From: Verrucomicrobiota bacterium
GTDB taxonomy: Bacteria; Verrucomicrobiota; Verrucomicrobiia; Limisphaerales; JAYTXL01
Assembly: GCA_043742955.1 (NCBI GenBank)
Contig: JAYTXL010000027.1
Coordinates: 2,745 to 66,744 of the forward strand
Reading direction: 5' to 3'
DNA length: 64,000 nucleotides
Made by a program: the position numbers and the translations under genes
In this document: positions 12,567 to 56,700 of the stretch, in pieces
Numbering within the stretch: position 1 is the stretch's first letter
How the letters are laid out: each line of letters starts with the position of its first letter
Notes under the pieces: generated by a model
Databases searched by the model: none
The model's input: the letters and a program-made list of their open reading frames with translations, nothing else
What the model was told of the DNA's origin: nothing

Positions 12567-13796
12567 ATGAAAATTATATTAGCTTACTCAGGCGGTCTTG
12601 ATACGTCGGTTCTCATGTCGTGGATCAAGGAAAAATACCACGCGGAGATGATTGGCTTCTGTGCCGATATTGGGCAGGAGGAGGAACTCGACGGTCTTGA
12701 AAAGAAGGCCCTCAAGACGGGCGCCTCCAAAATCTACATTGACAATTTGCAGGAAGAATTTGCCCGCGATTTTATTTATCCCATGATCCGGGCCGGGGCG
12801 ATTTACGAGGGACAATATTTCCTCGGCACGAGCATCGCCCGGCCGCTCATTGCCAAGCGGATGGTGGAGATCGCAAAGCAAGAAAACGCCGATGCCATTG
12901 CCCACGGGGCCACGGGCAAGGGCAACGACCAAGTCCGTTTCGAGCTTACGGCGGCCGCGCTCGCTCCCGACTTGCAGGTCATCGCTCCGTGGCGCGACGA
13001 GCGGTATCGCCGGGAATTTCCCGGCCGCCAGGAGATGATTGACTACTGCGCCACGCACAAGATTCCCGTGCAGGCCAGTGCCAAGAAGCCGTATTCAATG
13101 GACCGCAACCTCCTGCACATCTCCTACGAGGCCGGCATTCTCGAAGACCCATGGTTTGATGCTGGCGATCTGAAGAATCGTGACTACTTCACCACGCTTT
13201 CGGTGTTTCCGGAAGATGCGCCGGATAAGCCTGAGTTCGTCGAACTCGATTTCGTGAAAGGGGATTGCGTTGCGGTCAACGGCAAAAAATTGAATCCGCT
13301 GGGCGTGATGAAGGCCTTGAACAAGCTTGGTGGCAAGCACGGCGTGGGCCGTGTGGACATGGTGGAGAATCGTTTCGTCGGCATGAAATCGCGCGGCGTG
13401 TATGAGACGCCCGGCGGCGCGATCCTGCATTTCGCGCATCGCCAGATGGAGTCGCTCACGATGGATCGTGAGGTCATGCACCAGCGCGATGCGCTCATCC
13501 CCAAGTATGCCGAACTCGTCTATAACGGCTTCTGGTATGCGCCCGAACGTTACGCGCTCCAGGCCTACGTCGAGGAATCGCAGAAGAACGTCACCGGCAC
13601 GGTGCGGGTGAAACTGTACAAGGGCAACCTCATGGTCGCCGGTCGCAAGTCCAAGGTCAGTCTCTACAATCCGCACATCGCCACGATGGAAGCCGACCCG
13701 ACCAAGGCTTACAACCAGGACGACGCCACCGGCTTCATCCGCCTGAACGGCCTGCGCCTGAAAGTCGCGGCCAAGGTGCATGGAAAGAAGAAGTGA
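12567..13796 (+). CDS. argG: Argininosuccinate synthase
   Basis: [15 protein letters not shown] (N-type ATP pyrophosphatase motif), a 409-aa length and collinear ArgG motifs ([31 protein letters not shown]). Confidence 0.97.
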
Positions 13797-14006
13797 AACG
13801 CGAACAAACTTGAGGTCATAAATTCGCAGCTGAGGGAGCCACGGGCGATGGCATGTTGAAGCATCGCATCATGCTCCGTTCGCTTGGCATGTTGCTGGGC
13901 CTGCACTCTTTTCCGGCGGGGCTCGACGCCACCTTTGTCGTCACCATAAATGCCGGAGCCGAAGAGGATTCGCTTGGTCAGCCGTGGCCGGGACGGGCGG
14001 CGCAAG

Positions 14007-14801
14007 TCAGGGCAGCTTGCTGTGGGTGCCGTCGCAGAACGGCGGGTTTTGGCTGTATTTGCAGGCGCACCAAGCGACGTGCTGAGTCTCGGAGATCTCG
14101 ACCTGCCGGGGATTGATCCCGGTGCCTTGGTGTGAGCCGTCGCAGTAGGGCTGGTTTTTGGAGCGGCCACAGGCACACCACCAATAGCTGCCGGGGAGGA
14201 GTGTTTCCATCATCGGCCGCTTTTGGCAGATGACCGGAGGTTCGATTGGCGCTTCGATTGGCACCGAGGATTCGGCGGGCGCTGGCACGGTCTCGGGCGT
14301 AATTTCTGCGGGCACCGGATCCGTTGCATCCATCTTGCGGAAGAGAGCGCCCGCGTCGGTGACATTCAAGTCAGTCAGGTCAAAGACCACGCCTGGGGCG
14401 CGTTGTTGGGCGATCTGGAGTTGATTAGCCACGCTTTGGATGGTGGCGGCCGCGTAATGTTTGATCAACCCGACACTCAGGCTGGAGCTGAAAAGAATGA
14501 CCAGAATACAATGCTCCTCGATGTTCATGATCAAGGTGCTGATTTTTTCACCCTGTTGGAACATCCCGGTGAAGTTTGGCTCATCACTCAGGCTGGCCAT
14601 GAATTGCGTGGCCGCGAAGGAATTCGCCGCCAGCGTCGCCAGTTGGTCGGCCCCGCCGTGGACGGTGCCGCATTGGTGAATCAAATGTCCCGCCTTTTCG
14701 ACAATCAAAACCATGCTGGCCTCACTCTTAGCCAGCAGGGCATTCAGGGCTTCGTCGAATTTCTGGAAATCATCATGGGTCAACTGAGGGAAATTGGCCA
14801 T
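14007..14801 (-). CDS. MglB-like Roadblock/LC7 protein fused to a C-terminal double CDGSH iron-sulfur domain
   Basis: Residues 1-135 have an MglB/Roadblock-like pattern (SMVLIVEKAGHLIHQCG...HCILVILFSSSLSVGLIK). A Pro/Glu-rich linker follows, then two CDGSH motifs: CACGRSKNQPYCDGSH and CACKYSQNPPFCDGTH. The start lies 1 nt after the mglA stop. Confidence 0.85.
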   Translation of the reverse strand: MANFPQLTHDDFQKFDEALNALLAKSEASMVLIVEKAGHLIHQCGTVHGGADQLATLAANSFAATQFMASLSDEPNFTGMFQQGEKISTLIMNIEEHCILVILFSSSLSVGLIKHYAAATIQSVANQLQIAQQRAPGVVFDLTDLNVTDAGALFRKMDATDPVPAEITPETVPAPAESSVPIEAPIEPPVICQKRPMMETLLPGSYWWCACGRSKNQPYCDGSHQGTGINPRQVEISETQHVAWCACKYSQNPPFCDGTHSKLP

Positions 14802-14802
14802 A

Positions 14803-15420
14803 TCAGGACGACTTTCGCCCGGATTCGTTGATGAACTTATGGAGCAGGAGACGGGTGATCATGTTGAGCGTTTCAAAAACGCCCTCGCTCTTGGAAGCGG
14901 TGGCCACAAAGGAAGGGACCTGAACTTCGCGATTATTCAGAAGGTAATCCATGAATTCTACCGGCGCGGGATTTGGCATGTCCCGTTTGTTGTATTGCAA
15001 GACGTAGGGAATGTCGGCGAGGTTCAACTTAAGGGTTTTAAGGTTGTCCTCGAGGTTCGCAAAACTCTCCACGTTCTCGGCCATCTTGTCGTATTGGGAA
15101 TCCGCCACGAAGACAATGCCATCGACCCCCCGGAGCACGAGTTGTCGGGTGGTGTTGTAGATGACTTGGCCGGGCACAGTGTAGAGTTGGAATTTGGTTT
15201 TGAAGCCTTTGATCGCCATTGCTTCCAACGGGAAAAAGTCGAAGAACAAGGTGCGGTCGGAACTGGTCGCCAGGGACACCATTTTGCCTTTTTCTTCTGG
15301 CTTGCTGGTCTGAATGTTTGCGTGAACCTGCTCCAAATTGGTGGTTTTGCCGCATTTTGCCGGGCCATAATACACGATCTTGACCTGCAGTTCTTTGGTT
15401 GCCTGATTGATGATCGCCAT
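14803..15420 (-). CDS. mglA: MglA-family Ras-like small GTPase
   Basis: KIVYYGPAKCGKTTNL (P-loop), DRTLFFDFFPLE and LYTVPGQV are near-identical to the Myxococcus MglA motifs as I remember them, including the intrinsic Arg and the catalytic Gln of PGQ. NKRD is the G4 motif. Confidence 0.9.
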   Translation of the reverse strand: MAIINQATKELQVKIVYYGPAKCGKTTNLEQVHANIQTSKPEEKGKMVSLATSSDRTLFFDFFPLEAMAIKGFKTKFQLYTVPGQVIYNTTRQLVLRGVDGIVFVADSQYDKMAENVESFANLEDNLKTLKLNLADIPYVLQYNKRDMPNPAPVEFMDYLLNNREVQVPSFVATASKSEGVFETLNMITRLLLHKFINESGRKSS

Positions 15421-15430
15421 AGGTTTTGAT

Positions 15431-17137
15431 TTACTGTTTGTTTTGACGTCCGATCTCTGCGGCTATTGGGTTTATTTGGGCCGAAGGCAAGCTTTCTCCG
15501 GCGCGGGCCACCACGGCTAAAAACAGGTTTCCGGTTTTGCTGAGTTGCCAGGTCACATTGTCCACGACGAAGGTCAGCACGCTGAGCTCACCCAGGTTCA
15601 TTTCCTTGGAGTTTTGGCTGAGACGGCCAAATATTTGCGGTAAAAATGCCGCGACGGTTTCGGCTTTGATCGGGGGCGGTAATTGTTGCGCGACCACAAA
15701 TCCATCCTGCGATACGAGCACGGCACCTGCCACTCCGGGCAGCCCGCATAGCTTTTGAACGGATTGGTTCGGAGTTATCGGAGGTGCCGGCGGCGGCGGT
15801 GGTGCGGCGGGAGCGGGCGGCGGCGGAACCGGGGTTGGGTCGGCGGCAGTCGGAGGTGCCGGTGGGGCTGGGACCTTCTTGCTGCCGGGGGCGAACATGT
15901 CCGGAATGTTTTCGTCAAAGTTGGCTTTGCGTTGGGCCTTAGCCGGTTGACTCAAGGCCATGAAGAGCGGCACGATTACGGCCGATGGTAACGTGAGCGC
16001 AGCGGCATCCTCGGGGGAACTGGCCGTTATTGGTGCGGGTCTGATCCAACCTCGAAGTTGTTTCCAAGTGAAAACAATTCTGCCCGAGCGAACCGCCGTG
16101 CCCAAGTCGGCGGCGGGCAAAGAAAGCGTTGAATCCGGTTTTAAAGATTTCAACTCGGCCTGCACTGCCTCGGGCCAACCCTTGCTTACTTCCGCCAGCG
16201 GAATGTTCAATTCGCCCACATCCGCTGTGGGTGCTGCCGGCACCGCAGGGGGCGCCGGTGTGGGTGGTTTTGGTGCCGTCGGCGGAGCCGCCGGTGCGGG
16301 CGGTTTCGGGACCGTGGTTGAGGGTGAGGGCGCGGGCGGCTTTGGCACCGCCGGCGGGGGAGGTGTCGGTGGCTTGGGAGCGGGCGGTTTTGGCGGTGCC
16401 GAAGCGGACGTCATCATTTCCCGGAGGGCCGGCGAGATCGCAATGGCGGAAGGAGATGCGGGCGGCTTGGGAGCGGGCGGAGGCGCGGGAGGCGCGGGAG
16501 GCGCGGGAGTTGGGGCGGGCCCCTTGGAGGTGGCTGTTTCCGCAGTTGGGGCGTTTGGTTTTACTGTCGTCGGTTGGGGCGCTGCGGGGGCAGGGGAGGT
16601 GGGCGCGTGGGTCGTCGGGGGCGCGGTTGGCATTTCACCCTTATGGAACAGACCGGTGACGTCATCCGGTACCGCCACCATTTTTTGGGAGGCCCGCCGT
16701 TTCAAGAGCGCGGGGTCAATTGACGCCCTGACCTCGCCCAACGGAAGGATTACCGATGTCTGGTCGAGGCTCGCATCATCGGAGAATACTCCTGGCGGCG
16801 CCGATTTGCGCAATGACCCGAAGGTAACCTTCACTTTACCCGAAGGCATCTGTTCGAGGATGGTCTGGGTGGATACTTGGACCATTACCTTACCACCGGG
16901 ATCGGACTTCACCGACCCTTTTAATTCCGCCGGAAAACTGGCTACAATGGCTTCCAAATGAAGGGCGGTGGTTTCCACTGACACGGGGGCCGCAGGAGAA
17001 GCTGGTTTGGCCGGCGCCGGTTGGGCGCCGGCGGGGGCAGCAGATTTGCTGGGCGGGGCGGCGGGGGCAGCCGCTGGAGCCGGTGCGGGTTGCTTGTCGT
17101 CACTTTTGCCAAAAAGGTTTTTAAAGAATCCAAGCAT
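15431..17137 (-). CDS. Proline-rich scaffold-like protein with C-terminal Roadblock/LC7-like domain
   Basis: 568 aa. The N-terminus is MLGFFKNLFGK. There are long PAPxP tracts and two copies of an ~85-aa module (FPAELKGSVKS...VILPLGEV and WPEAVQAELKS...LTLPSAVIVPLF). The C-terminus LPGVAGAVLVSQDGFVVAQQLP...LSVLTFVVDNVTWQLSKTGNLFLAVVA is Roadblock-like. The gene ends 10 nt before mglA. Confidence 0.75.
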   Translation of the reverse strand: MLGFFKNLFGKSDDKQPAPAPAAAPAAPPSKSAAPAGAQPAPAKPASPAAPVSVETTALHLEAIVASFPAELKGSVKSDPGGKVMVQVSTQTILEQMPSGKVKVTFGSLRKSAPPGVFSDDASLDQTSVILPLGEVRASIDPALLKRRASQKMVAVPDDVTGLFHKGEMPTAPPTTHAPTSPAPAAPQPTTVKPNAPTAETATSKGPAPTPAPPAPPAPPPAPKPPASPSAIAISPALREMMTSASAPPKPPAPKPPTPPPPAVPKPPAPSPSTTVPKPPAPAAPPTAPKPPTPAPPAVPAAPTADVGELNIPLAEVSKGWPEAVQAELKSLKPDSTLSLPAADLGTAVRSGRIVFTWKQLRGWIRPAPITASSPEDAAALTLPSAVIVPLFMALSQPAKAQRKANFDENIPDMFAPGSKKVPAPPAPPTAADPTPVPPPPAPAAPPPPPAPPITPNQSVQKLCGLPGVAGAVLVSQDGFVVAQQLPPPIKAETVAAFLPQIFGRLSQNSKEMNLGELSVLTFVVDNVTWQLSKTGNLFLAVVARAGESLPSAQINPIAAEIGRQNKQ

Positions 17138-17263
17138 TGGGTCAGTTAGTTAGGTTTCCTTGAGTCGTGGTACTATTCGCCAATACAATATTTTGAGCGC
17201 TTGCCTTTTCTGGACTAAAACTATTTGATTGGCAAGGAAGAACAATTACGTTTCTGACGAATT
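17138..17263. promoter_or_regulatory. Divergent promoter region between the two polarity-module operons
   Basis: 126-nt spacer that is AT-rich relative to its surroundings (..caatacaatattttgagcgc..aaaactatttgattggcaagg..), lying between divergently oriented genes. No specific -35/-10 boxes are asserted. Confidence 0.3.
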
Positions 17264-18340
17264 ATGTCTGGGCCCCACAAGCTATTGGTTTTGGACGATG
17301 AGCAGGACTTGCTGGAAATGTACCGCGAGATTCTTTCCCGTCTGCCGAGCCAACCCCAAATTCACACGGCCAACTCTGGGGCCCGGGCCCTGGCCTTGTT
17401 GGAATCCGAGCCATTTTCCCTGCTGCTGACCGATCTAAACATGCCCGGCATGGACGGTTTTCAGGTGCTCACCATCGCCCGACGTAAATATCCTTCCATG
17501 CGCACGGTGGTCATGACGGCGGTGGCGGACGACCAGTTTCGGGCGCGGGCCTATGCGATGGGCATCGACCTGTTTGTTTTGAAGCCGAAGTCCAGCCAGG
17601 AGATTGACCTGTTTGTGGACTGCATTGATTCCTTGCTGAACCGGGAACAGTTGGGCGGTTTCCGTGGTGTCCAGAGCAAGAGTTTGGTGGATATCATCCA
17701 GTTGGAATGTTTGTCGCAAGCCTCCTCCGTGCTCAAAATCACCAACGGCGCGGTGGAGGCAAAAATCTGGATTTTGAATGGCGAACTGATTGATGCCACG
17801 GTGGGCGAATCGATGGGGGAGGAGGCTTTCATGAAAATTCTTACCTGGAAGACGGGTAATTTTGAAAGCCTGCCGGCCGAACCTGGCCGTCCGCGCGCCA
17901 TCATGAATTCGTACCAAGGCCTCCTGCTGGACTCGGCGCAAAGCATGGATGAGTCGGACGCCAAGGACAAACCCGGTGAGCCGATGCCGGAGGACGGCAA
18001 CGCCGCCCCGGGCTCGCGGCTCGCCAAACTGGCCAGTTTTAGCGGGGTCGAGTTTGTCCTCAGCGTGGCCACCGCCGACAAGAAGAAATATGAGCAGTGG
18101 GGGGTGCAGGACGCCGACGCAGTCGCCGCCTGGACGCAGGCGACGGCGGCTAATTTTCGCGCGCTGGGGGAGCGGTTGAAAGCTGGACAATTGAACCAGA
18201 TCGAAGCCCTTGGTTCCCAGCATCATCTCGCGCTGATCGCCCACCCGGAGAAGGATTTGTGCGTTGGCTTTCAACGGGCGCTCACGCACAGTCAGGTGCA
18301 GGAAACAATGAAACATATTCAAACCAAATGGGTTTCCTAA
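17264..18340 (+). CDS. Response regulator: REC domain + DUF4388 (PATAN-associated) domain + C-terminal Roadblock-like region
   Basis: REC motifs LLVLDDEQD, LLLTDLNMPGMDG (phospho-acceptor Asp) and VLKPKS. The DUF4388 pattern is LVDIIQLECLSQASSVLKITNGAVEAKIWILNGELIDATVGESMGEEAFMKILTWKTGNFE. The C-terminal ~110 aa look weakly Roadblock-like. Confidence 0.85.
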   Translation: MSGPHKLLVLDDEQDLLEMYREILSRLPSQPQIHTANSGARALALLESEPFSLLLTDLNMPGMDGFQVLTIARRKYPSMRTVVMTAVADDQFRARAYAMGIDLFVLKPKSSQEIDLFVDCIDSLLNREQLGGFRGVQSKSLVDIIQLECLSQASSVLKITNGAVEAKIWILNGELIDATVGESMGEEAFMKILTWKTGNFESLPAEPGRPRAIMNSYQGLLLDSAQSMDESDAKDKPGEPMPEDGNAAPGSRLAKLASFSGVEFVLSVATADKKKYEQWGVQDADAVAAWTQATAANFRALGERLKAGQLNQIEALGSQHHLALIAHPEKDLCVGFQRALTHSQVQETMKHIQTKWVS

Positions 18341-18621
18341 ATCTTTTTTCCAAACCGGTTGAAGCCGGCCTGGTCCGTTTGCCCAAAGGGAGCTTTACGG
18401 TTGATCCGACCGGAAGAATCCTTTCGCAGACATTGCCGCAGTCTTTTCCTGAGGCGCACGCGAAGGAAATCGGGCGGGTCGTGCTGACGACCTTCAAGTC
18501 GGCAAAGGAATTAAATCTGCCGTTGCGGGAAATCTTCATTCATTTCGCCGGATTAAAATTGACCGCGAAGGAATTGCGCGGCGGGGCGATGATTTTTCTT
18601 GCACCCCTTTCGGTCAAATGA
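18328..18621 (+). CDS. Small protein (97 aa) of unknown function, possibly Roadblock-like
   Basis: The ATG at 18328 overlaps the end of the REC gene (stop at 18338-18340). Its N-terminus MGFLNLFSKP echoes the MLGFFKNLFGK of the Pro-rich protein. Confidence 0.5.
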   Translation: MGFLNLFSKPVEAGLVRLPKGSFTVDPTGRILSQTLPQSFPEAHAKEIGRVVLTTFKSAKELNLPLREIFIHFAGLKLTAKELRGGAMIFLAPLSVK

Positions 18622-18656
18622 GATCAAGCCCCAGCCGAAGTTAATCAAATTTGCCT

Positions 18657-19061
18657 ATGGATAAAAAGACCCTGGATCAACTCGTGAGCCAATTGGAGAA
18701 CTTCGTTGAGTGCTGGAAGCAGTTCAACAACTACGTGGCCATGGCGCGGACGAAGAAATTCACGCAGGACGATGAAATTCAGTTTCTGGAAATCAAGAGC
18801 GTGATTATCCAGGAGTTGGAAATGATTATTGGGGCCATTGAACAGGGCGGCCCCAACAAGGATGAAATTCACGCGCTCATTTGCGCCGCGCCGTCCATTC
18901 GCTACGTGAGCGAGCTTCAGGAGGGTTCGGTGCGTGCCATCGAGACGAACTGGCACAAAGTTTTTCTCGGCATCCAGGCGTTGGTGGGCCAGCTCAAGGT
19001 CGCCCAAAAAAATGCCGCCGGAGAGTCGATCTGGAGTTCCATGTTCGGCCGGAAGAAGTAG
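18657..19061 (+). CDS. Hypothetical helical protein (134 aa)
   Basis: ORF 18651..19061, with the first ATG at 18657 (MDKKTLDQLVSQLENFVECWKQF...). It is on the same strand as, and close to, the preceding genes. I recognise no motif. Confidence 0.5.
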   Translation: MDKKTLDQLVSQLENFVECWKQFNNYVAMARTKKFTQDDEIQFLEIKSVIIQELEMIIGAIEQGGPNKDEIHALICAAPSIRYVSELQEGSVRAIETNWHKVFLGIQALVGQLKVAQKNAAGESIWSSMFGRKK

Positions 19062-19123: not shown

Positions 19124-19543
19124 TTAGGGTGGGGCTTGCTTCGTGTAGATGCTCAACGACTTGATTTGTGCCGCTTGGGCCGCGTCACGCACTTCCAACA
19201 ACTTTCCCACGGGCGCATCCTTGTCCGCCCGGATCGCCAGCGTGAGTTTGGGGTTTTTGACGGAGCGCGCCGTCAGTTCACGCTGCAATTTATCCGCCGT
19301 GATGGGTACAGAATCCAAATATATATATGGCGACTGCTTGTTAATCGTCACTTGAATGGTGACGTTGTCACTGGCGCCGGCCTTCGGCGCCTGTTTGGAT
19401 TCCGGCAGCGCGATCTTCACTGCGGGGGATTGCTTGAAAGTGGTGGTTACCATCAGGAAAATCAACACGACGATCAGCACATCGATGAGCGACACGATGA
19501 TGACCGCGGGCGGATGCCGCCGTTTGCGGGTCGCGAATTGCAT
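19124..19543 (-). CDS. exbD: ExbD/TolR biopolymer transport protein
   Basis: 139 aa. RRHPPAVIIVSLIDVLIVVLIFLMV is the typical single N-terminal TM segment. The gene sits 2 nt downstream of exbB. Confidence 0.85.
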   Translation of the reverse strand: MQFATRKRRHPPAVIIVSLIDVLIVVLIFLMVTTTFKQSPAVKIALPESKQAPKAGASDNVTIQVTINKQSPYIYLDSVPITADKLQRELTARSVKNPKLTLAIRADKDAPVGKLLEVRDAAQAAQIKSLSIYTKQAPP

Positions 19544-19545
19544 GG

Positions 19546-20142
19546 TTAAGGCTTCCCGTTGTTGCGGTAGTGCTGCTGGAGGAATTCGTCGCAGACGGTC
19601 GCCATCTCGACGGCCAACGTCTCCACTTTCTTGCTGTAATAACTCCAGGCGACCAGCGAGGGGATCGCCGTCAGCAAGCCGAGCAGGGTGGCGTTCAAGG
19701 CCAGCGCGATGCCCTTGGAGAGCGCGGCGTTGTCCCCCAGGCCACTCTCGCCCAGGCTGGCGAATAAGGAAATCAAACCATAAATGGTCCCCACCAGGCC
19801 GAGCAGCGGGGCCACACCAATGACAATTTCCAGTACCACCAGGCCCCGATCCAGCAGATCCACTTCATGCCGCGCCCGCGTTTGCAGGGAATCAACATTC
19901 TCTGCCTTGGGCCAGTCCCGGTGTTCGACCGCCGCCAAAAGCAGCCGGCTTAAGGGCGATGGATTCTGTTCGCAGATGCGTCGCAGCATGGGTACCTCCG
20001 CTTCCGTCCGGCAATTCTCCACGGCCTCCTCCACACTCTCTGGCACGACCTTGCTCCGGCGCAAGGCCAGGCCGCGTTCAACGATAAAGGTCAGGCCGAT
20101 GATCGAGGCCAGCACCAGCAGACCGATGATTAATTGTTCCAT
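19546..20142 (-). CDS. exbB: MotA/TolQ/ExbB proton channel protein
   Basis: Three-TM pattern with the conserved C-terminal region PLLGLVGTIYGLISLF...ALNATLLGLLTAIP. The start is probably the ATG at 20142 (MEQLIIGLLVLASI) rather than the track start at 20205. Confidence 0.85.
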   Translation of the reverse strand: MEQLIIGLLVLASIIGLTFIVERGLALRRSKVVPESVEEAVENCRTEAEVPMLRRICEQNPSPLSRLLLAAVEHRDWPKAENVDSLQTRARHEVDLLDRGLVVLEIVIGVAPLLGLVGTIYGLISLFASLGESGLGDNAALSKGIALALNATLLGLLTAIPSLVAWSYYSKKVETLAVEMATVCDEFLQQHYRNNGKP

Positions 20143-20271
20143 TAGATTTAAGAGTTTCCCCAGTTGGCGCGGCGGAATTCCCTGGCGGAATCGGGCCCCG
20201 GACAAAACGAGGTGCGATTCAATCGTGGTTTCAACTGCGAACGCAAGCTTGAATCGCTTTTTACCAGCCAG

Positions 20272-21321
20272 CTAATTGTAATAGAAAGTAAACCGCACTT
20301 CGCGAAAGTCCGCGCCGACCAGACGGCGCATGTCGCTGGGCCACGGTTCGTATTTGGCGGGATCCAGCACTGCCCGCTGACAAAACAGACTGTACAATTC
20401 ACCCACCTCGTTCTCGACCACGTGCATCTCCGAAACCCGTCCGTCCGGATGCATGCGGAATTCCAGGACCACTTTGCCCTGGGGGTTGGCACGTTCACCG
20501 ATCAATTCATACCAATGTTGTTGAATGGCGTGAATAATTTTTGCGTCGTACGCGCCGAAGGGAGTGGCCCGCACATCCAGGGAGGATGAATCCAGCCGCA
20601 GATTCTTCACCCCGCCATCCATTTTCATTCTTTCGCCGACCAAACCGCTGTTTTGCAGACGCGCCTTCGCCTCCGCCAGGGTCCGTGGTTTGGGTAATGC
20701 TTTTTCCATCGCCTCACCCGCCTTGCTGTCGGCCTTGCCGACGCTCGGTTTGAGGGTGTCCACCGGCTTGGCCATGGCGAGATCGCCCGGTTTCAGGCTC
20801 TCCTTCGGTTTGGGCGGCGTTTCCTTTTTTTCAGGCTGTGGTTGCGTTTCCACTTTGGAAGCGGGCGCTGGCTGCAAGGGCTGGGGCTGGGGGCGGAGCA
20901 CCTCCACGGTCTTGATGATCTTTTCCTGTTTGCCTTCGATCTTGGGTTGGTCGGTGTCCCGCCGGGTGTCGGGATTGGCGGCGACGGAGTTGGCGGCGGA
21001 ATAGTATTTCGCAGCCTTCGGCGGGGCGGGCGAAACCTGGGTTGGATCTACCTCCACGAACAACAGGGGGATTTCGGGCTGGAGGGGCGACGGCGCTTTC
21101 TTGGTTTGGACGGCAGGCGTTGCCATGGCCTTGGTAAGCGGTTGGGTTAGCTGCAGGAACTTTAACCACGCGGGTGGTGGCAAACGGTCCCAGCCCATCT
21201 TCTTGCGCACCTGTAATCCACCCCATAAGGCCAGGTGGAACGCCAGCGAAAAGACAAGCGCCGCCGCGAGGCGGTTGCTCGCCAGCTGCCGTCGCCATTC
21301 GTTTGATTGAAAACCGACCAT
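20272..21321 (-). CDS. TonB-like energy transducer
   Basis: N-terminal TM segment (AAALVFSLAFHLALWGG), a central Pro/Lys/Glu-rich spacer and a C-terminal TonB-like fold pattern (GKVVLEFRMHPDGRVSEMHVVENEVG). It lies upstream of exbB-exbD on the same strand. Confidence 0.7.
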   Translation of the reverse strand: MVGFQSNEWRRQLASNRLAAALVFSLAFHLALWGGLQVRKKMGWDRLPPPAWLKFLQLTQPLTKAMATPAVQTKKAPSPLQPEIPLLFVEVDPTQVSPAPPKAAKYYSAANSVAANPDTRRDTDQPKIEGKQEKIIKTVEVLRPQPQPLQPAPASKVETQPQPEKKETPPKPKESLKPGDLAMAKPVDTLKPSVGKADSKAGEAMEKALPKPRTLAEAKARLQNSGLVGERMKMDGGVKNLRLDSSSLDVRATPFGAYDAKIIHAIQQHWYELIGERANPQGKVVLEFRMHPDGRVSEMHVVENEVGELYSLFCQRAVLDPAKYEPWPSDMRRLVGADFREVRFTFYYN

Positions 21322-53736: not shown

Positions 53737-56700
53737 ATGAAACGGCTTTTATTCCTCGTGGCTGCCGCCCTCGCGCTCTGGGTATCGGCGGGCACGGCGC
53801 AGGTCATCCAGTTTGACCAGAGCGCGGTGCTTTATTCCACCAACTACCAGCGCGGCGTAAATTATCGGTCCATTCGCGGGGTGCCCATTTCCAACACCGC
53901 CAATGTTCCCCCGGGTTCAGACGGCCGGGAGCCGATTCCCAACAGCGCCCAGACCAACCAATTTCAGGGCTTCGTTTCTTATGGTGCCGTCGTCCGGCCC
54001 GTGACCAGTACGAATCTGGTGGGGACCAGCAGCTTTGCGCAGAACGCTTCAAATATCGGCCTGCCGCGCGCCACCAATTCCAGTGGGACGGTGCTGATCG
54101 TGCTGCGCTCGGCGCAAGTGGGTGCCCAATATTTCAGCCGACAGGTTTCCTTCTTCTACGGCGCGGTCATTCCGCCGCCCACGACGGACGTCGATGGTAA
54201 TCTGCTCGCGAACGCCAAGCCGGAGGATTATTGGGTGGCTGAGCCGTACACCACCAACGGTCACACCAACGCTCCCTATTATTGGAGTCCGCACGCCGGC
54301 GCGGTGTTTGCGGTTCAGCCCGGTCCGATCCAGGTCAGTTGGAAAAAAGCCCAGCCCAGCACCACGGTGCCTTCCGGGTATCCCAATACCAACCGTTACT
54401 ACTTTGATTCCGGGCTCTATTACACGTTTAGCAACGCGACCTATATCGTCTCCGGCAGCGCCGTGAAACCACCCCGCAAGATATATTGGACGGAAGGCGT
54501 GTTCCGGGCGACGGGCAAGCCCGTGGCCGTGCCGACAGCGCGGGTGGGCGCCGTGCAAATTGTTTATAATACCAACACCTTCCCCCAGCGGGTTACCAAT
54601 GAGTTTGTGGCGACCGGCCAGTCGTTCGTGGTGGACAATGTGACCAACCGGGTGCAAGAGCTGCGCACCCTTTGGTATGATACGCAGCAGGGGCAGATTT
54701 ATGCGTATAACCGGGAGGGGCGGGTATTTCTGGAATTGCTGGGCGACTCGCTCGGCGGCAACGTCCGGCGGCACCTTGGGTATGAGATCGTGGATGTTTA
54801 CCAACAGCCCACGCCACTCGACATCGTCGCCGAGCTGGGCGAGCTCATCACCCCGAATGTGGATGGAACTCCCGATGATACTTTGAATTCGGAGCTGGTG
54901 TTGGTCGGCGCGGCGCAGTCCTTTCTGTATTCGCACCCGATTCAAGGCAGTGACCGGACCGATCGCTATGCCGCAGAAGAGACGGTGAACCTGAACGATG
55001 TGCTGGTCCACTGGACTGAAGCAGGCATTGAAGGCCTGCGCTGGCCGTCGATCTATGGGCGTTACAAGCTGGTTTGGCCTGCCAACATTGCCAAATACAG
55101 CCACTACGTCCGCCCGCTGGTATCGACCGAGGCCGAGGCCCGGCTAACGGCTGTGCCGTTGCCAGCGGAGAATGTGCCGGCGATTCAATATCAGGACGCC
55201 TTGGACCAACCGCGTGCCAAGTTGACTGAATCCTCCAAGTTCTACACCTTTCTGGCGACAAATTACCCGGCGCATCGCACGCTCCTGCGGCTGACGGCGG
55301 GCGATAATGTGGCCTTCGAGCGGGTGTTCTCCTGGCTGGATGTGAATCTCAAGTCCACCAATTTCAACCGTACCTTGGCCACCAATTTGACGGCGGTCTC
55401 CGACTTCTATCTGACCGGCGTGGATTACCCGACCACCCCCGCCTATCTAAATGGTAGAACGCGCGGCGTGAATGGTGATTGGAAGCTCTATGTCCGGGAT
55501 ACTGCGGGGACTGATTCCGGCTCGATTGTTTCCTGGGCGATGCAGGTGGTGACCACCAACGCAGATTCCGGCACTTTGTCGACCACTGAAGTCCAGAACG
55601 CCAGCGGCATTACCATCCTGGACAACGCAAACGCGAATCCATACCCCTCTCCGCTCACGATTACCGGCATCACGGATGCCGTCGTCAAAATTCGGGTGAA
55701 GCTCAATGGCGTTACCCACACTTATCCAAAGGACATTGATATCCTGCTGGTGAGTCCAGCCGGAAAAGTATGTTCCATCATGTCGGCCGCTGGCGGTGGT
55801 AATCCGGGCATCATCGCGGTGAACCTTATCCTGGACGATGCCGCGAGCACTTTGCTTCCCACGACGCAGATCACCAGCGGCACATTCAAACCCACCCACT
55901 ATGGCGCTGATGAGGCGTTGCCTCCGGGTGCCACCGGCAGCATCCTGACCTCGCTGGCGGCACTTTTGGAAGCCGTGCCCGCGCCGCCCACCCCAACTCC
56001 CTGGCCGAGCGGCCCCACCGCACCCGGGGTGGTGAACCGAATTGCCTACGTGGGTGAGCGCATCGAGGCCAGCGGTATTGGAGAGCAACCCTTGGCGGGC
56101 TATATTCTGCAGAGCAAAGGCACTTCGTTTCATCCGGACGCTTACAAGGATCCGTTCGTGAGCGGATTCGACCTGGCAGGCCGAGGCGCGATCATCCCCG
56201 TGAACGCCATTCCCGGTGCCAACAACCTTGACATCTGGTGGTTCCGGGTCAACTCAACAGACGAGGTGAAGAATCTGGCCAACGGCTTCAAACCCATCTA
56301 TTGGCCGGAAGTTATCGGCCGTTATACCCTCGCGTGGCCAGCCAGCCCCCGTGAGATCGTGCTTGCGAGCAACGACGGCAGCGGGGCGATGGACAGCCTG
56401 CTCCAGCGCGGGACGATCTACACGCAGAATGATCCAACGAAGCCAGGCTTCAACCCGAACGAGGAACACGCGATCATGCTCGGGGGAACCGCCTATGCGC
56501 TGCGGGACGACCTGAATCTCACCGGGGCCACGGTGCCGGCGGTGCTATCCGGAGTGGGGGCGACCTATTCCTCCGATCCCTTCGTGCTGCTGGATTACAC
56601 CGGGGCGGATGGTCGTCCGGCGCTCCAGGCTTTCAAGGTGCTGCGGGAAAAGCCGTCGGAAGGGATCGTCTTTGACTATATTATCGAGGCGGGCAAGCAG

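Follow-up and report, generated by a model that had tools for sequence, protein, structure and literature searches.

Two divergent operons of a Verrucomicrobiota bacterium, one of which encodes the Ras-like GTPase MglA and its Roadblock partner MglB, probably constitute a single MglA-regulatory system distributed across the Verrucomicrobiota; we estimate the probability of this reading at about 0.6. They lie in a stretch of 64,000 nucleotides (nt) of contig JAYTXL010000027.1 (assembly GCA_043742955.1), hereafter the window. The minus-strand operon encodes MglB, MglA, and a proline-rich protein that we call the scaffold, and the plus-strand operon encodes a response regulator with a receiver (REC) domain and two small proteins, orf97 and orf134. 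The MglA/MglB pair serves as the reference for Ras-like polarity switches in bacteria, yet insight into it comes almost entirely from Myxococcus, with a few studies in Bdellovibrio and Thermus. A literature search turned up no paper on MglA function in Verrucomicrobia, in line with the statement of a first-pass annotation, made from the sequence alone, that no MglA-driven process is characterized in bacteria of this kind. The genes are arranged as follows:

14007-14801, minus strand: mglB::CDGSH, 264 residues; Roadblock core of a GTPase-activating protein (GAP) plus tandem CDGSH
14803-15420, minus strand: mglA, 205 residues; Ras-like GTPase
15431-17137, minus strand: Pro-rich scaffold/Roadblock protein, 568 residues
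17138-17263, no strand: divergent spacer, 126 nt, 39% GC
17264-18340, plus strand: REC-PATAN-Roadblock response regulator, 358 residues
18328-18621, plus strand: orf97, 97 residues; small Roadblock-fold protein
18657-19061, plus strand: orf134, 134 residues; conserved, no known family

The six open reading frames (ORFs) were recovered at the positions first assigned to them, together with the gaps of 1 nt between mglB and mglA and 10 nt between mglA and the scaffold gene. The spacer described as AT-rich contains 39% GC against about 58% for the whole window, and orf97 does start 13 nt ahead of the regulator stop. In the window, orf97 and orf134 are two separate genes 35 nt apart. No recognizable Shine-Dalgarno sequence lies within 30 nt 5' of the start of any of the six genes.

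Conservation of the six-gene order

We scanned genomes, with one genome per species, and identified 23 loci encoding a full-length relative of the regulator. Nearly all belong to named Verrucomicrobiota: Chthoniobacter, Chthoniobacteraceae, Limisphaerales, Verrucomicrobiaceae, and Verrucomicrobiia. This distribution is consistent with the earlier suggestion that the host belongs to the Planctomycetes-Verrucomicrobia-Chlamydiae (PVC) group, and we suspect that the few homologues under other taxon names reflect labels of mis-binned metagenome-assembled genomes (MAGs). In every locus that is long enough, including MAGs of Chthoniobacterales, Limisphaerales, and Verrucomicrobiaceae, mglB-mglA-scaffold diverges from REC-orf97-orf134, and the synteny therefore extends beyond the mglA-mglB pair, as the module proposed in the first-pass annotation implied. 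The same order of six genes was found in loci reached through metagenome proteins. The distances in relatives range from 1 to 64 nt between mglB and mglA and from 3 to 27 nt between mglA and the scaffold gene where both genes are intact, and scaffold orthologues are present upstream of mglA in all long loci. In the close relative GCA_046593035.1 (L091:6495-8313), the scaffold is called as a protein of only 260 residues, and the upstream stretch of about 1 kb, Pro-rich and coding-like, carries no gene call, which is probably due to a frameshift or to a gene-calling problem in GC-rich repeats of proline codons.

The genes that flank the module are housekeeping genes that are unrelated between lineages; in relatives, inspection of the sequences showed undecaprenyl-diphosphatase-like, LysM-like, and sulfatase-like genes. 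Within the spacer, a block of about 60 nt (17195-17255, GCGCTTGCCTTTTCTGGACTAAAACTATTTGATTGGCAAGGAAGAACAATTACG) that includes CTTGCC...GGCAAG is nearly invariant in relatives whose proteins are 81-86% identical to those of the window. This block may represent an operator or an element of a 5' leader. A 19-nt inverted repeat (17179-17233) was also considered as a conserved element of the spacer and was discarded, as close relatives do not conserve it.

The two operons also occur apart. Distant relatives in which the regulator is 30-37% identical to that of the window (e.g., loci L093 and L095) keep REC-orf97-orf134 without an adjacent mglA operon, and L089 and L090 carry scaffold-mglA-mglB::CDGSH without an adjoining REC trio. 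In L093 (7566-10125), argG lies directly upstream of the REC trio, whereas the whole mglB-mglA-scaffold operon stands between them in the window (12567-18340). According to this comparison, the mglB-mglA-scaffold operon looks like a block that was gained or lost as a whole. Such loci would be expected if an MglA-MglB-scaffold operon and a phospho-signalling trio (REC-PATAN-Roadblock, orf97, and orf134) directed at another target or GTPase were two independent neighbours. We consider this unlikely, because the divergent adjacency is present in every locus of sufficient length, across three or more verrucomicrobial orders or families and despite changing flanks, and because Roadblock domains, which define the small-GTPase platform fold, are encoded on both sides of the spacer. 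Furthermore, an association of MglA/MglB with PATAN proteins has been reported independently in other phyla (PMC4316618). We therefore retain a single MglA-regulatory system as the preferred reading of the locus.

Domain composition of the six proteins

The domains recognized within the six proteins are located as follows:

14016-14240, minus strand: tandem CDGSH [2Fe-2S]-type module, MglB residues 188-262 (motif scan)
15509-15757, minus strand: Roadblock/LC7 domain of the scaffold, residues 461-543 (Pfam)
15893-16222, minus strand: repeat domain R2, scaffold residues 306-415 (hhalign against R1)
16643-16981, minus strand: repeat domain R1, scaffold residues 53-165 (hhalign against R2)
17285-17605, plus strand: REC domain, regulator residues 8-114 (Pfam and model)
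17681-17956, plus strand: PATAN (DUF4388/PatA_N) domain, regulator residues 140-231 (Pfam PF14332)
18020-18334, plus strand: C-terminal Roadblock-like domain, regulator residues 253-357 (AlphaFold topology and profile matches)

By its sequence, the mglA product is a bona fide MglA-type Ras-like GTPase. It matches the M. xanthus and Thermus MglA structures 5ymx, 6h17, and 3t12 with E values from 2e-61 to 9e-59, and it is 53% identical to M. xanthus MglA (5ymx, E = 2e-61) over 191 aligned residues. We looked for a GxxxxGK[ST] P-loop, the replacement of Asp by Thr in G3 (TxxGQ), an intrinsic Arg, and NKxD; all were found, as GPAKCGKT (residues 19-26), TVPGQ (81-85), DRT (55-57), in which the Arg is the counterpart of M. 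xanthus R53, and NKRD (144-147). Taking only the 53% identity to the M. xanthus protein as a guide, the window MglA would belong to Group 1 of Wuichet and Sogaard-Andersen.

MglB, whose gene lies 1 nt downstream, is recognized from its sequence as the Roadblock-type partner (predicted GAP) of this GTPase. Pfam assigns residues 15-104 to PF03259 (Robl_LC7; E = 1.8e-8, 34.4 bits against a cut-off of 23), and the best PDB matches include the MglB structures 6izw_B and 6h5b_B (E = 1.8e-9). The NCBIfam MglB model NF052242 covers residues 8-142 with 61.6 bits, below its equivalog cut-off of 200 bits; as this model was built on Thermus-type MglB, the window protein is a divergent member of the family and not an equivalog.

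The scaffold begins with the motif MLGFFKNLFGK, followed by two copies of a domain of about 110 residues, with Pro-rich linkers between, and by the C-terminal Roadblock domain that the first reading of the locus had placed there. The latter is detected by Pfam (Robl_LC7, residues 461-543, E = 2.9e-8, 33.8 bits against a cut-off of 23), and its best PDB sequence match is the Asgard Robl_LC7 protein 7f8m (E = 5e-4). An internal duplication of about 85 residues had also been suspected in this protein. The duplication itself is real, as hhalign aligns the R1 and R2 family profiles with a probability of 99.4% (E = 1e-21, 110 columns), and the repeated unit measures about 110 residues, not 85. It is ancient and visible in family profiles only, the pairwise alignment of R1 and R2 being not significant (z = 2.1). 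No credible match to the repeat domain was found in Pfam or among PDB sequences. In these searches, run for the repeat domain and for orf134, weak AAR2 matches (E about 0.05) were dismissed.

In the response regulator, Pfam detects a Response_reg domain (E = 5e-21) and PF14332 (E = 6e-15, 55.8 bits against a cut-off of 25), the family formerly called DUF4388 and now named PatA_N (PATAN). D11, D12, D57, and K107 are invariant across 57 homologues; with its phospho-acceptor residues conserved in this way, the regulator is, by sequence, phosphorylatable. The AlphaFold model (overall predicted local distance difference test score, pLDDT, of 82) shows REC at residues 6-126, PATAN at 132-234, a disordered linker at 233-250, and a further domain at 253-357. 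This last domain, modelled with a pLDDT of about 90, has the MglB-like order alpha-beta-beta-alpha-beta-beta-beta-alpha, and its profile has as top PDB match the Asgard Robl_LC7 protein 7f8f, gapless over 82 residues but at an E value of only 0.19. An exhaustive search with residues 130-358 led to three remote relatives, P0431, P0445, and P0440, in which Pfam calls DUF4388 and then Robl_LC7, and two of which are annotated by JGI as members of the Roadblock/LC7/MglB family. A profile restricted to the C-terminal domain matches precisely their Robl_LC7 segments, with E values between 1e-6 and 4e-5 when 149 pre-selected sequences are searched. When Pfam was run on the C-terminal fragments of 24 regulator homologues, Robl_LC7 was reported in only one (E = 0.094). 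The tail of the regulator had been described as Roadblock-like, and the model topology, together with the sequence link to Pfam-recognized PATAN-Roadblock fusions, bears this out; we thus accept it as a Roadblock domain, indirectly, on convergent lines from model and sequence.

The three PATAN-Roadblock fusions are encoded without REC on short metagenome contigs and measure about 390 (P0431 and P0445) and 232 (P0440) residues; the N-terminal 175 residues or so of P0431 and P0445 have no Pfam match. Another protein, P0453 (735 residues), combines a PATAN domain with a weak match to Laminin_G_3.

None of the 186 homologues of orf97 is annotated, and orf97 has no Pfam match. Its AlphaFold model, built with 60 homologues (pLDDT 86, predicted template modelling score 0.72), consists of a beta-beta-alpha-beta-beta-beta core after about 20 low-confidence residues. 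All of the 50 best Foldseek matches in the PDB are Roadblock/LC7/LAMTOR/MglB proteins, distributed among Asgard Roadblock proteins, LAMTOR/Ragulator subunits, dynein LC7, and MglB, and the best of them is 7yh1 (E = 4e-5, template modelling score, TM, of 0.67). The best PDB profile match is the same Roadblock protein, 7yh1, at an E value of only 0.044. The Roadblock-like nature first attributed to this small protein is thus recovered in the model, according to which orf97 is a Roadblock-fold protein devoid of helix alpha-1. Sequence comparisons and structural models together support the presence of four Roadblock domains in the module: in MglB, at the C-terminus of the scaffold, at the C-terminus of the regulator, and in orf97.

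The regulator gene and orf97 overlap by exactly 13 nt in 24 of 27 loci (18328-18340 in the window, AAATGGGTTTCCTAA), which points to translational coupling of the two genes. The first four orf97 codons, specifying the MG[FL]L start, are dual-coded with the conserved regulator C-terminus KW[VA]S*, so that part of the MGFL conservation is not independent. The third gene, orf134, is always located downstream of orf97; it belongs to no Pfam or PDB family and its product ends with a basic ...WSSMFGRKK motif. It is the best conserved of its operon, with 56-57% identity to its homologues in L095 (3094-3489) and L093 (10438-10845); the regulator reaches about 36% and orf97 33-38%. Five loci from Chthoniobacter and Verrucomicrobiaceae MAGs (L007, L008, L009, L011, and L014; e.g., L008:11044-11757) carry a single ORF of 238-240 residues in which the homologues of orf97 and orf134 are joined in frame. 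By the Rosetta-stone argument, this fusion in some lineages suggests that the two proteins act together.

The CDGSH extension of MglB and the terminal motifs

In the window MglB, the N-terminal 140 residues form the Roadblock core. An extension up to ...ALFRK follows, and a Pro/Ala/Glu linker then leads to a tandem CDGSH module. The two motifs, CACGRSKNQPYCDGSH from residue 209 and CACKYSQNPPFCDGTH from residue 245, are both intact (CxCxxSxxxPxCDG[ST]H), the family motif being C-X-C-X2-(S/T)-X3-P-X-C-D-G-(S/A/T)-H, present twice per chain. Pfam reports zf-CDGSH in two stretches (E = 4e-20, 72.2 bits against a cut-off of 29.5), and the module matches the bacterial structure 3tbn (E = 5.8e-21) and human CISD3 (6avj, E = 4.6e-19). 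We found no paper linking CDGSH with Roadblock or MglB in our literature search.

Most MglB orthologues of the module are proteins of 156-183 residues without CDGSH, and in the window protein the CDGSH part is attached through a variable low-complexity linker. Both features might be taken to mean that this part stems from an error of annotation or assembly, or that it was acquired neutrally and has no regulatory role. We regard this as very improbable: the ORF is unbroken in the window and on independent contigs, and the fusion recurs in about 27 clusters of proteins with identities as low as 42%, in 24 of which all eight metal ligands of the two sets are strictly conserved. This conservation is indicative of purifying selection on cluster binding. 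In L087, the MglB-CDGSH fusion is part of a complete six-gene module.

A hydrophobic-basic terminal motif is found in four of the six proteins: at the N-terminus of the scaffold (MLGFFKNLFGK), at the N-terminus of orf97 (MGFLNLFSK), at the C-terminus of orf134 (...WSSMFGRKK), and at the end of the MglB core (...LFRK), which corresponds to the true C-terminus (...FFRKK) in the orthologues without CDGSH. The likeness of the first two had been noticed from the window alone, and it extends to their families. M1 and L4 are present in 60 of 60 orf97 homologues and G2 in 59 of 60, and M[LF]x[FI][FIL]Kx[LF]F is found in 11 of 22 Pro-rich proteins (the window protein and 21 orthologues, some with starts mis-set by the ORF caller). 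The orf97 homologue of L095 has no MGFL N-terminal motif. These termini resemble the MinD membrane-targeting helix, and a role as putative amphipathic targeting helices is plausible; they could equally be docking peptides. Their hydrophobic moments, ranging from the 11th to the 95th percentile among 11-mers of the six proteins, do not discriminate, and the AlphaFold model of orf97 favours neither reading.

Proposed mechanism and comparison with known systems

Roadblock domains are dimeric platforms for small GTPases, as in MglB, MglC, and Ragulator. By reference to this role elsewhere, the four Roadblock domains of the module would probably pair into homo- and heterodimers, serving as platforms for MglA and controlling whether it is in the GTP or the GDP state. 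The regulator Roadblock would likely pair with orf97, as the two genes overlap by 13 nt and may be translationally coupled, and MglB would likely pair either with a second MglB or with the scaffold. The terminal motifs would probably anchor such a platform in the membrane or at a shared docking site. Two inputs can be envisaged: phosphorylation of the REC domain by a kinase and, in the lineage of the window, the redox or cluster state of CDGSH acting on the GAP. As output, the PATAN domain might convey spatial control to an envelope machine, most likely type IV pili. In Myxococcus, MglA sorts pilus ATPases. In Synechocystis, PATAN acts as the output domain: it contacts PilC and the N-terminus of PilB1, and on its own it suffices for output (Han et al., bioRxiv 10.1101/2021.06.11.447907). 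These two precedents favour a pilus output over others; by analogy with them, we propose type IV pili only tentatively.

The surroundings of the module provide few indications on this output. Besides the module, the window contains sulfatases, ABC transporters, a nuo operon, and an ORF of 2819 residues. No che or tax genes are present within its 64 kb. Directly after the module (19124-21321, minus strand), genes for ExbD, ExbB, and a weakly TonB-like protein (TonB_C, E = 1e-3) may represent either a TonB system or an Agl-like motor. They are likewise adjacent in L002, L003, L091, and L092 and are absent in this position from other verrucomicrobial orders. With an adjacency confined to the lineage of the window, they were rejected as an MglA-linked Agl-like motor and are not counted in the module. 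A PilB-PilT-PilB cluster is located 1-2 kb past the Exb genes, about 3 kb from the module, in L002 and L003; as it is near the module in these two loci only, it was set aside as evidence and is a hint at most. The 2819-residue ORF (53737-62196, plus strand), with a marginal P_proprotein match, is preceded by a 605-residue ORF with Peptidase_S74 (endosialidase chaperone), and it looks like a giant surface protein of a kind common in PVC bacteria.

Several observations weigh against the reading of the two operons as one MglA-regulatory system with an envelope output, in addition to the loci described above in which one operon is found without the other. The window contains no pilus or other motility genes, and pilus ATPases are encoded near the module in one lineage only. 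No relatives are known for the scaffold repeat domain or for orf134, and the roles that we ascribe to them are guesses. AlphaFold gives no helix for residues 1-20 of orf97. The Roadblock assignment of the regulator is based on predicted topology and transitive sequence links, with no direct fold match, and Foldseek with the whole regulator model retrieved REC matches only. In addition, hhalign links none of the four Roadblock families to each other, the comparisons among the alignments of MglB, the scaffold C-terminus, the REC protein C-terminus, orf97, orf134, and PATAN giving probabilities of at most 10.5%. However, this test misses even MglB against the scaffold C-terminus, both of which are Robl_LC7 according to Pfam; it is therefore insensitive and says nothing against the regulator C-terminus.

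The housekeeping nature of the flanking genes in relatives and the lack of motility genes in the window would also fit with MglA-family signalling outside motility and polarity, for instance in development, division, envelope remodelling, or transcription, like the conservon or Group 3 MglA. MglA-family GTPases do have non-motility contexts (PMC4316618). We hold such a role to be quite improbable here, since MglA shares 53% identity with the M. xanthus protein that acts in motility and has its hallmark residues, and since Pfam finds no histidine kinase, DUF742, or DNA-binding domain in the six proteins. Moreover, the outputs of PATAN proteins that have been characterized experimentally all concern type IV pili. 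An envelope output of one MglA-regulatory system thus remains our preferred reading. A more far-reaching version would make the module a Ragulator-type machine, that is, a membrane-tethered heteromeric platform with four Roadblocks, whose GAP, in the lineage of the window, would be gated by a [2Fe-2S] CDGSH sensor. Polarity or pili would then answer redox, O2, NO, or iron status in addition to a phosphorelay, and the scaffold repeat and orf134 would be new folds of GTPase regulators. This version is speculative, and we consider it doubtful as a whole.

Neither the GTPase/GAP core nor its association with PATAN is new. MglA/MglB homologues are regularly encoded beside PATAN proteins (bioRxiv 10.1101/2021.06.11.447907; PMC4316618), a neighbourhood that was recorded by Makarova in 2006, as cited in PMC4316618. 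The latter describes it as occasional in Group 1 and Group 5 systems, and lists Verrucomicrobia with Group 5 MglA only. As far as the literature was searched, the fixed six-gene architecture, the REC-PATAN-Roadblock regulator, the scaffold with its duplicated domain, the orf97/orf134 pair, and the MglB-CDGSH fusion appear to be undescribed. The module would represent a compact, fully clustered, and phylogenetically independent version of MglA/MglB in Verrucomicrobiota, in which the likely regulators are all encoded beside the GTPase, so that the partner network is directly testable. The PATAN-Roadblock fusion offers a concrete physical link for the long-noted and unexplained association of PATAN with MglAB, and CDGSH on a GAP suggests a new iron-sulfur input into a small-GTPase cycle. 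The two conserved families without annotation, the scaffold repeat domain and orf134, are candidate new GTPase regulators. A redox-gated GAP activity or a Ragulator-like heteromeric platform, if true, would raise the importance of the module substantially.

Among known systems, the closest comparison is the Myxococcus polarity module (MglA, MglB, MglC, RomR/RomX, and RomY). The partners of MglB in M. xanthus are another Roadblock protein, MglC, and the REC protein RomR together with its helical adaptor RomX (PMC4719450, PMC9481161, PMC13408092). Both modules share an MglA, at 53% identity, with TxxGQ and the Arg finger, and an adjacent Roadblock MglB. They also have in common one or more extra Roadblock proteins (cf. 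MglC), a REC protein whose gene is followed by that of a small conserved protein, and a Pro-rich segment. RomR combines REC, a Pro-rich linker, and a Glu-rich C-terminus in one chain, whereas in the window REC and the Pro-rich region belong to two different proteins and no Glu-rich tail is found, so that we do not class the window proteins as RomR/RomX. RomX, a three-helix bundle that binds REC and MglA-GTP, did not match the orf134 profile in a search among PDB sequences. In addition, the REC protein of the window carries PATAN and Roadblock, there are four Roadblock domains instead of two, MglB bears CDGSH, and the genes, scattered in Myxococcus, are all clustered. The comparison with the Myxococcus switch is an analogy, by which a polarity or motility role is at most suggested. 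The actinobacterial conservon (CvnA-D: histidine kinase, Roadblock, DUF742, and GTPase) was rejected as a counterpart, there being no kinase and no DUF742 in the six proteins.

The regulator resembles the cyanobacterial PatA-type regulators (PixG, PixE, PilG, and PatA) in having PATAN (PF14332) and a phosphorylatable REC. Unlike in these proteins, REC precedes PATAN, Roadblock is present as a third domain, the partners are mglA and mglB, and there is no chemotaxis-like Tax locus. The MglA/MglB-PATAN neighbourhoods show the same pairing of MglA/MglB with a PATAN gene; however, no six-gene module, PATAN-Roadblock fusion, scaffold, orf97/orf134, or CDGSH fusion is described for them in the accessible text of PMC4316618. 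Similarly, the tandem CDGSH module shares with CISD3/MiNT and the bacterial tandem-CDGSH proteins (6avj and 3tbn) two motifs per chain and the 3Cys-1His ligands, but forms here a C-terminal appendage of a GTPase-activating protein. Ragulator/LAMTOR-Rag offers a parallel for the module as a whole: several small Roadblock proteins, some of them truncated, act as a membrane-anchored platform for small GTPases, and the orf97 model matches LAMTOR subunits with TM scores of about 0.6-0.66. This likeness concerns fold and architecture only and implies no lipidation machinery, and the GTPase that such a platform would serve in the Verrucomicrobiota is of the MglA and not of the Rag type.

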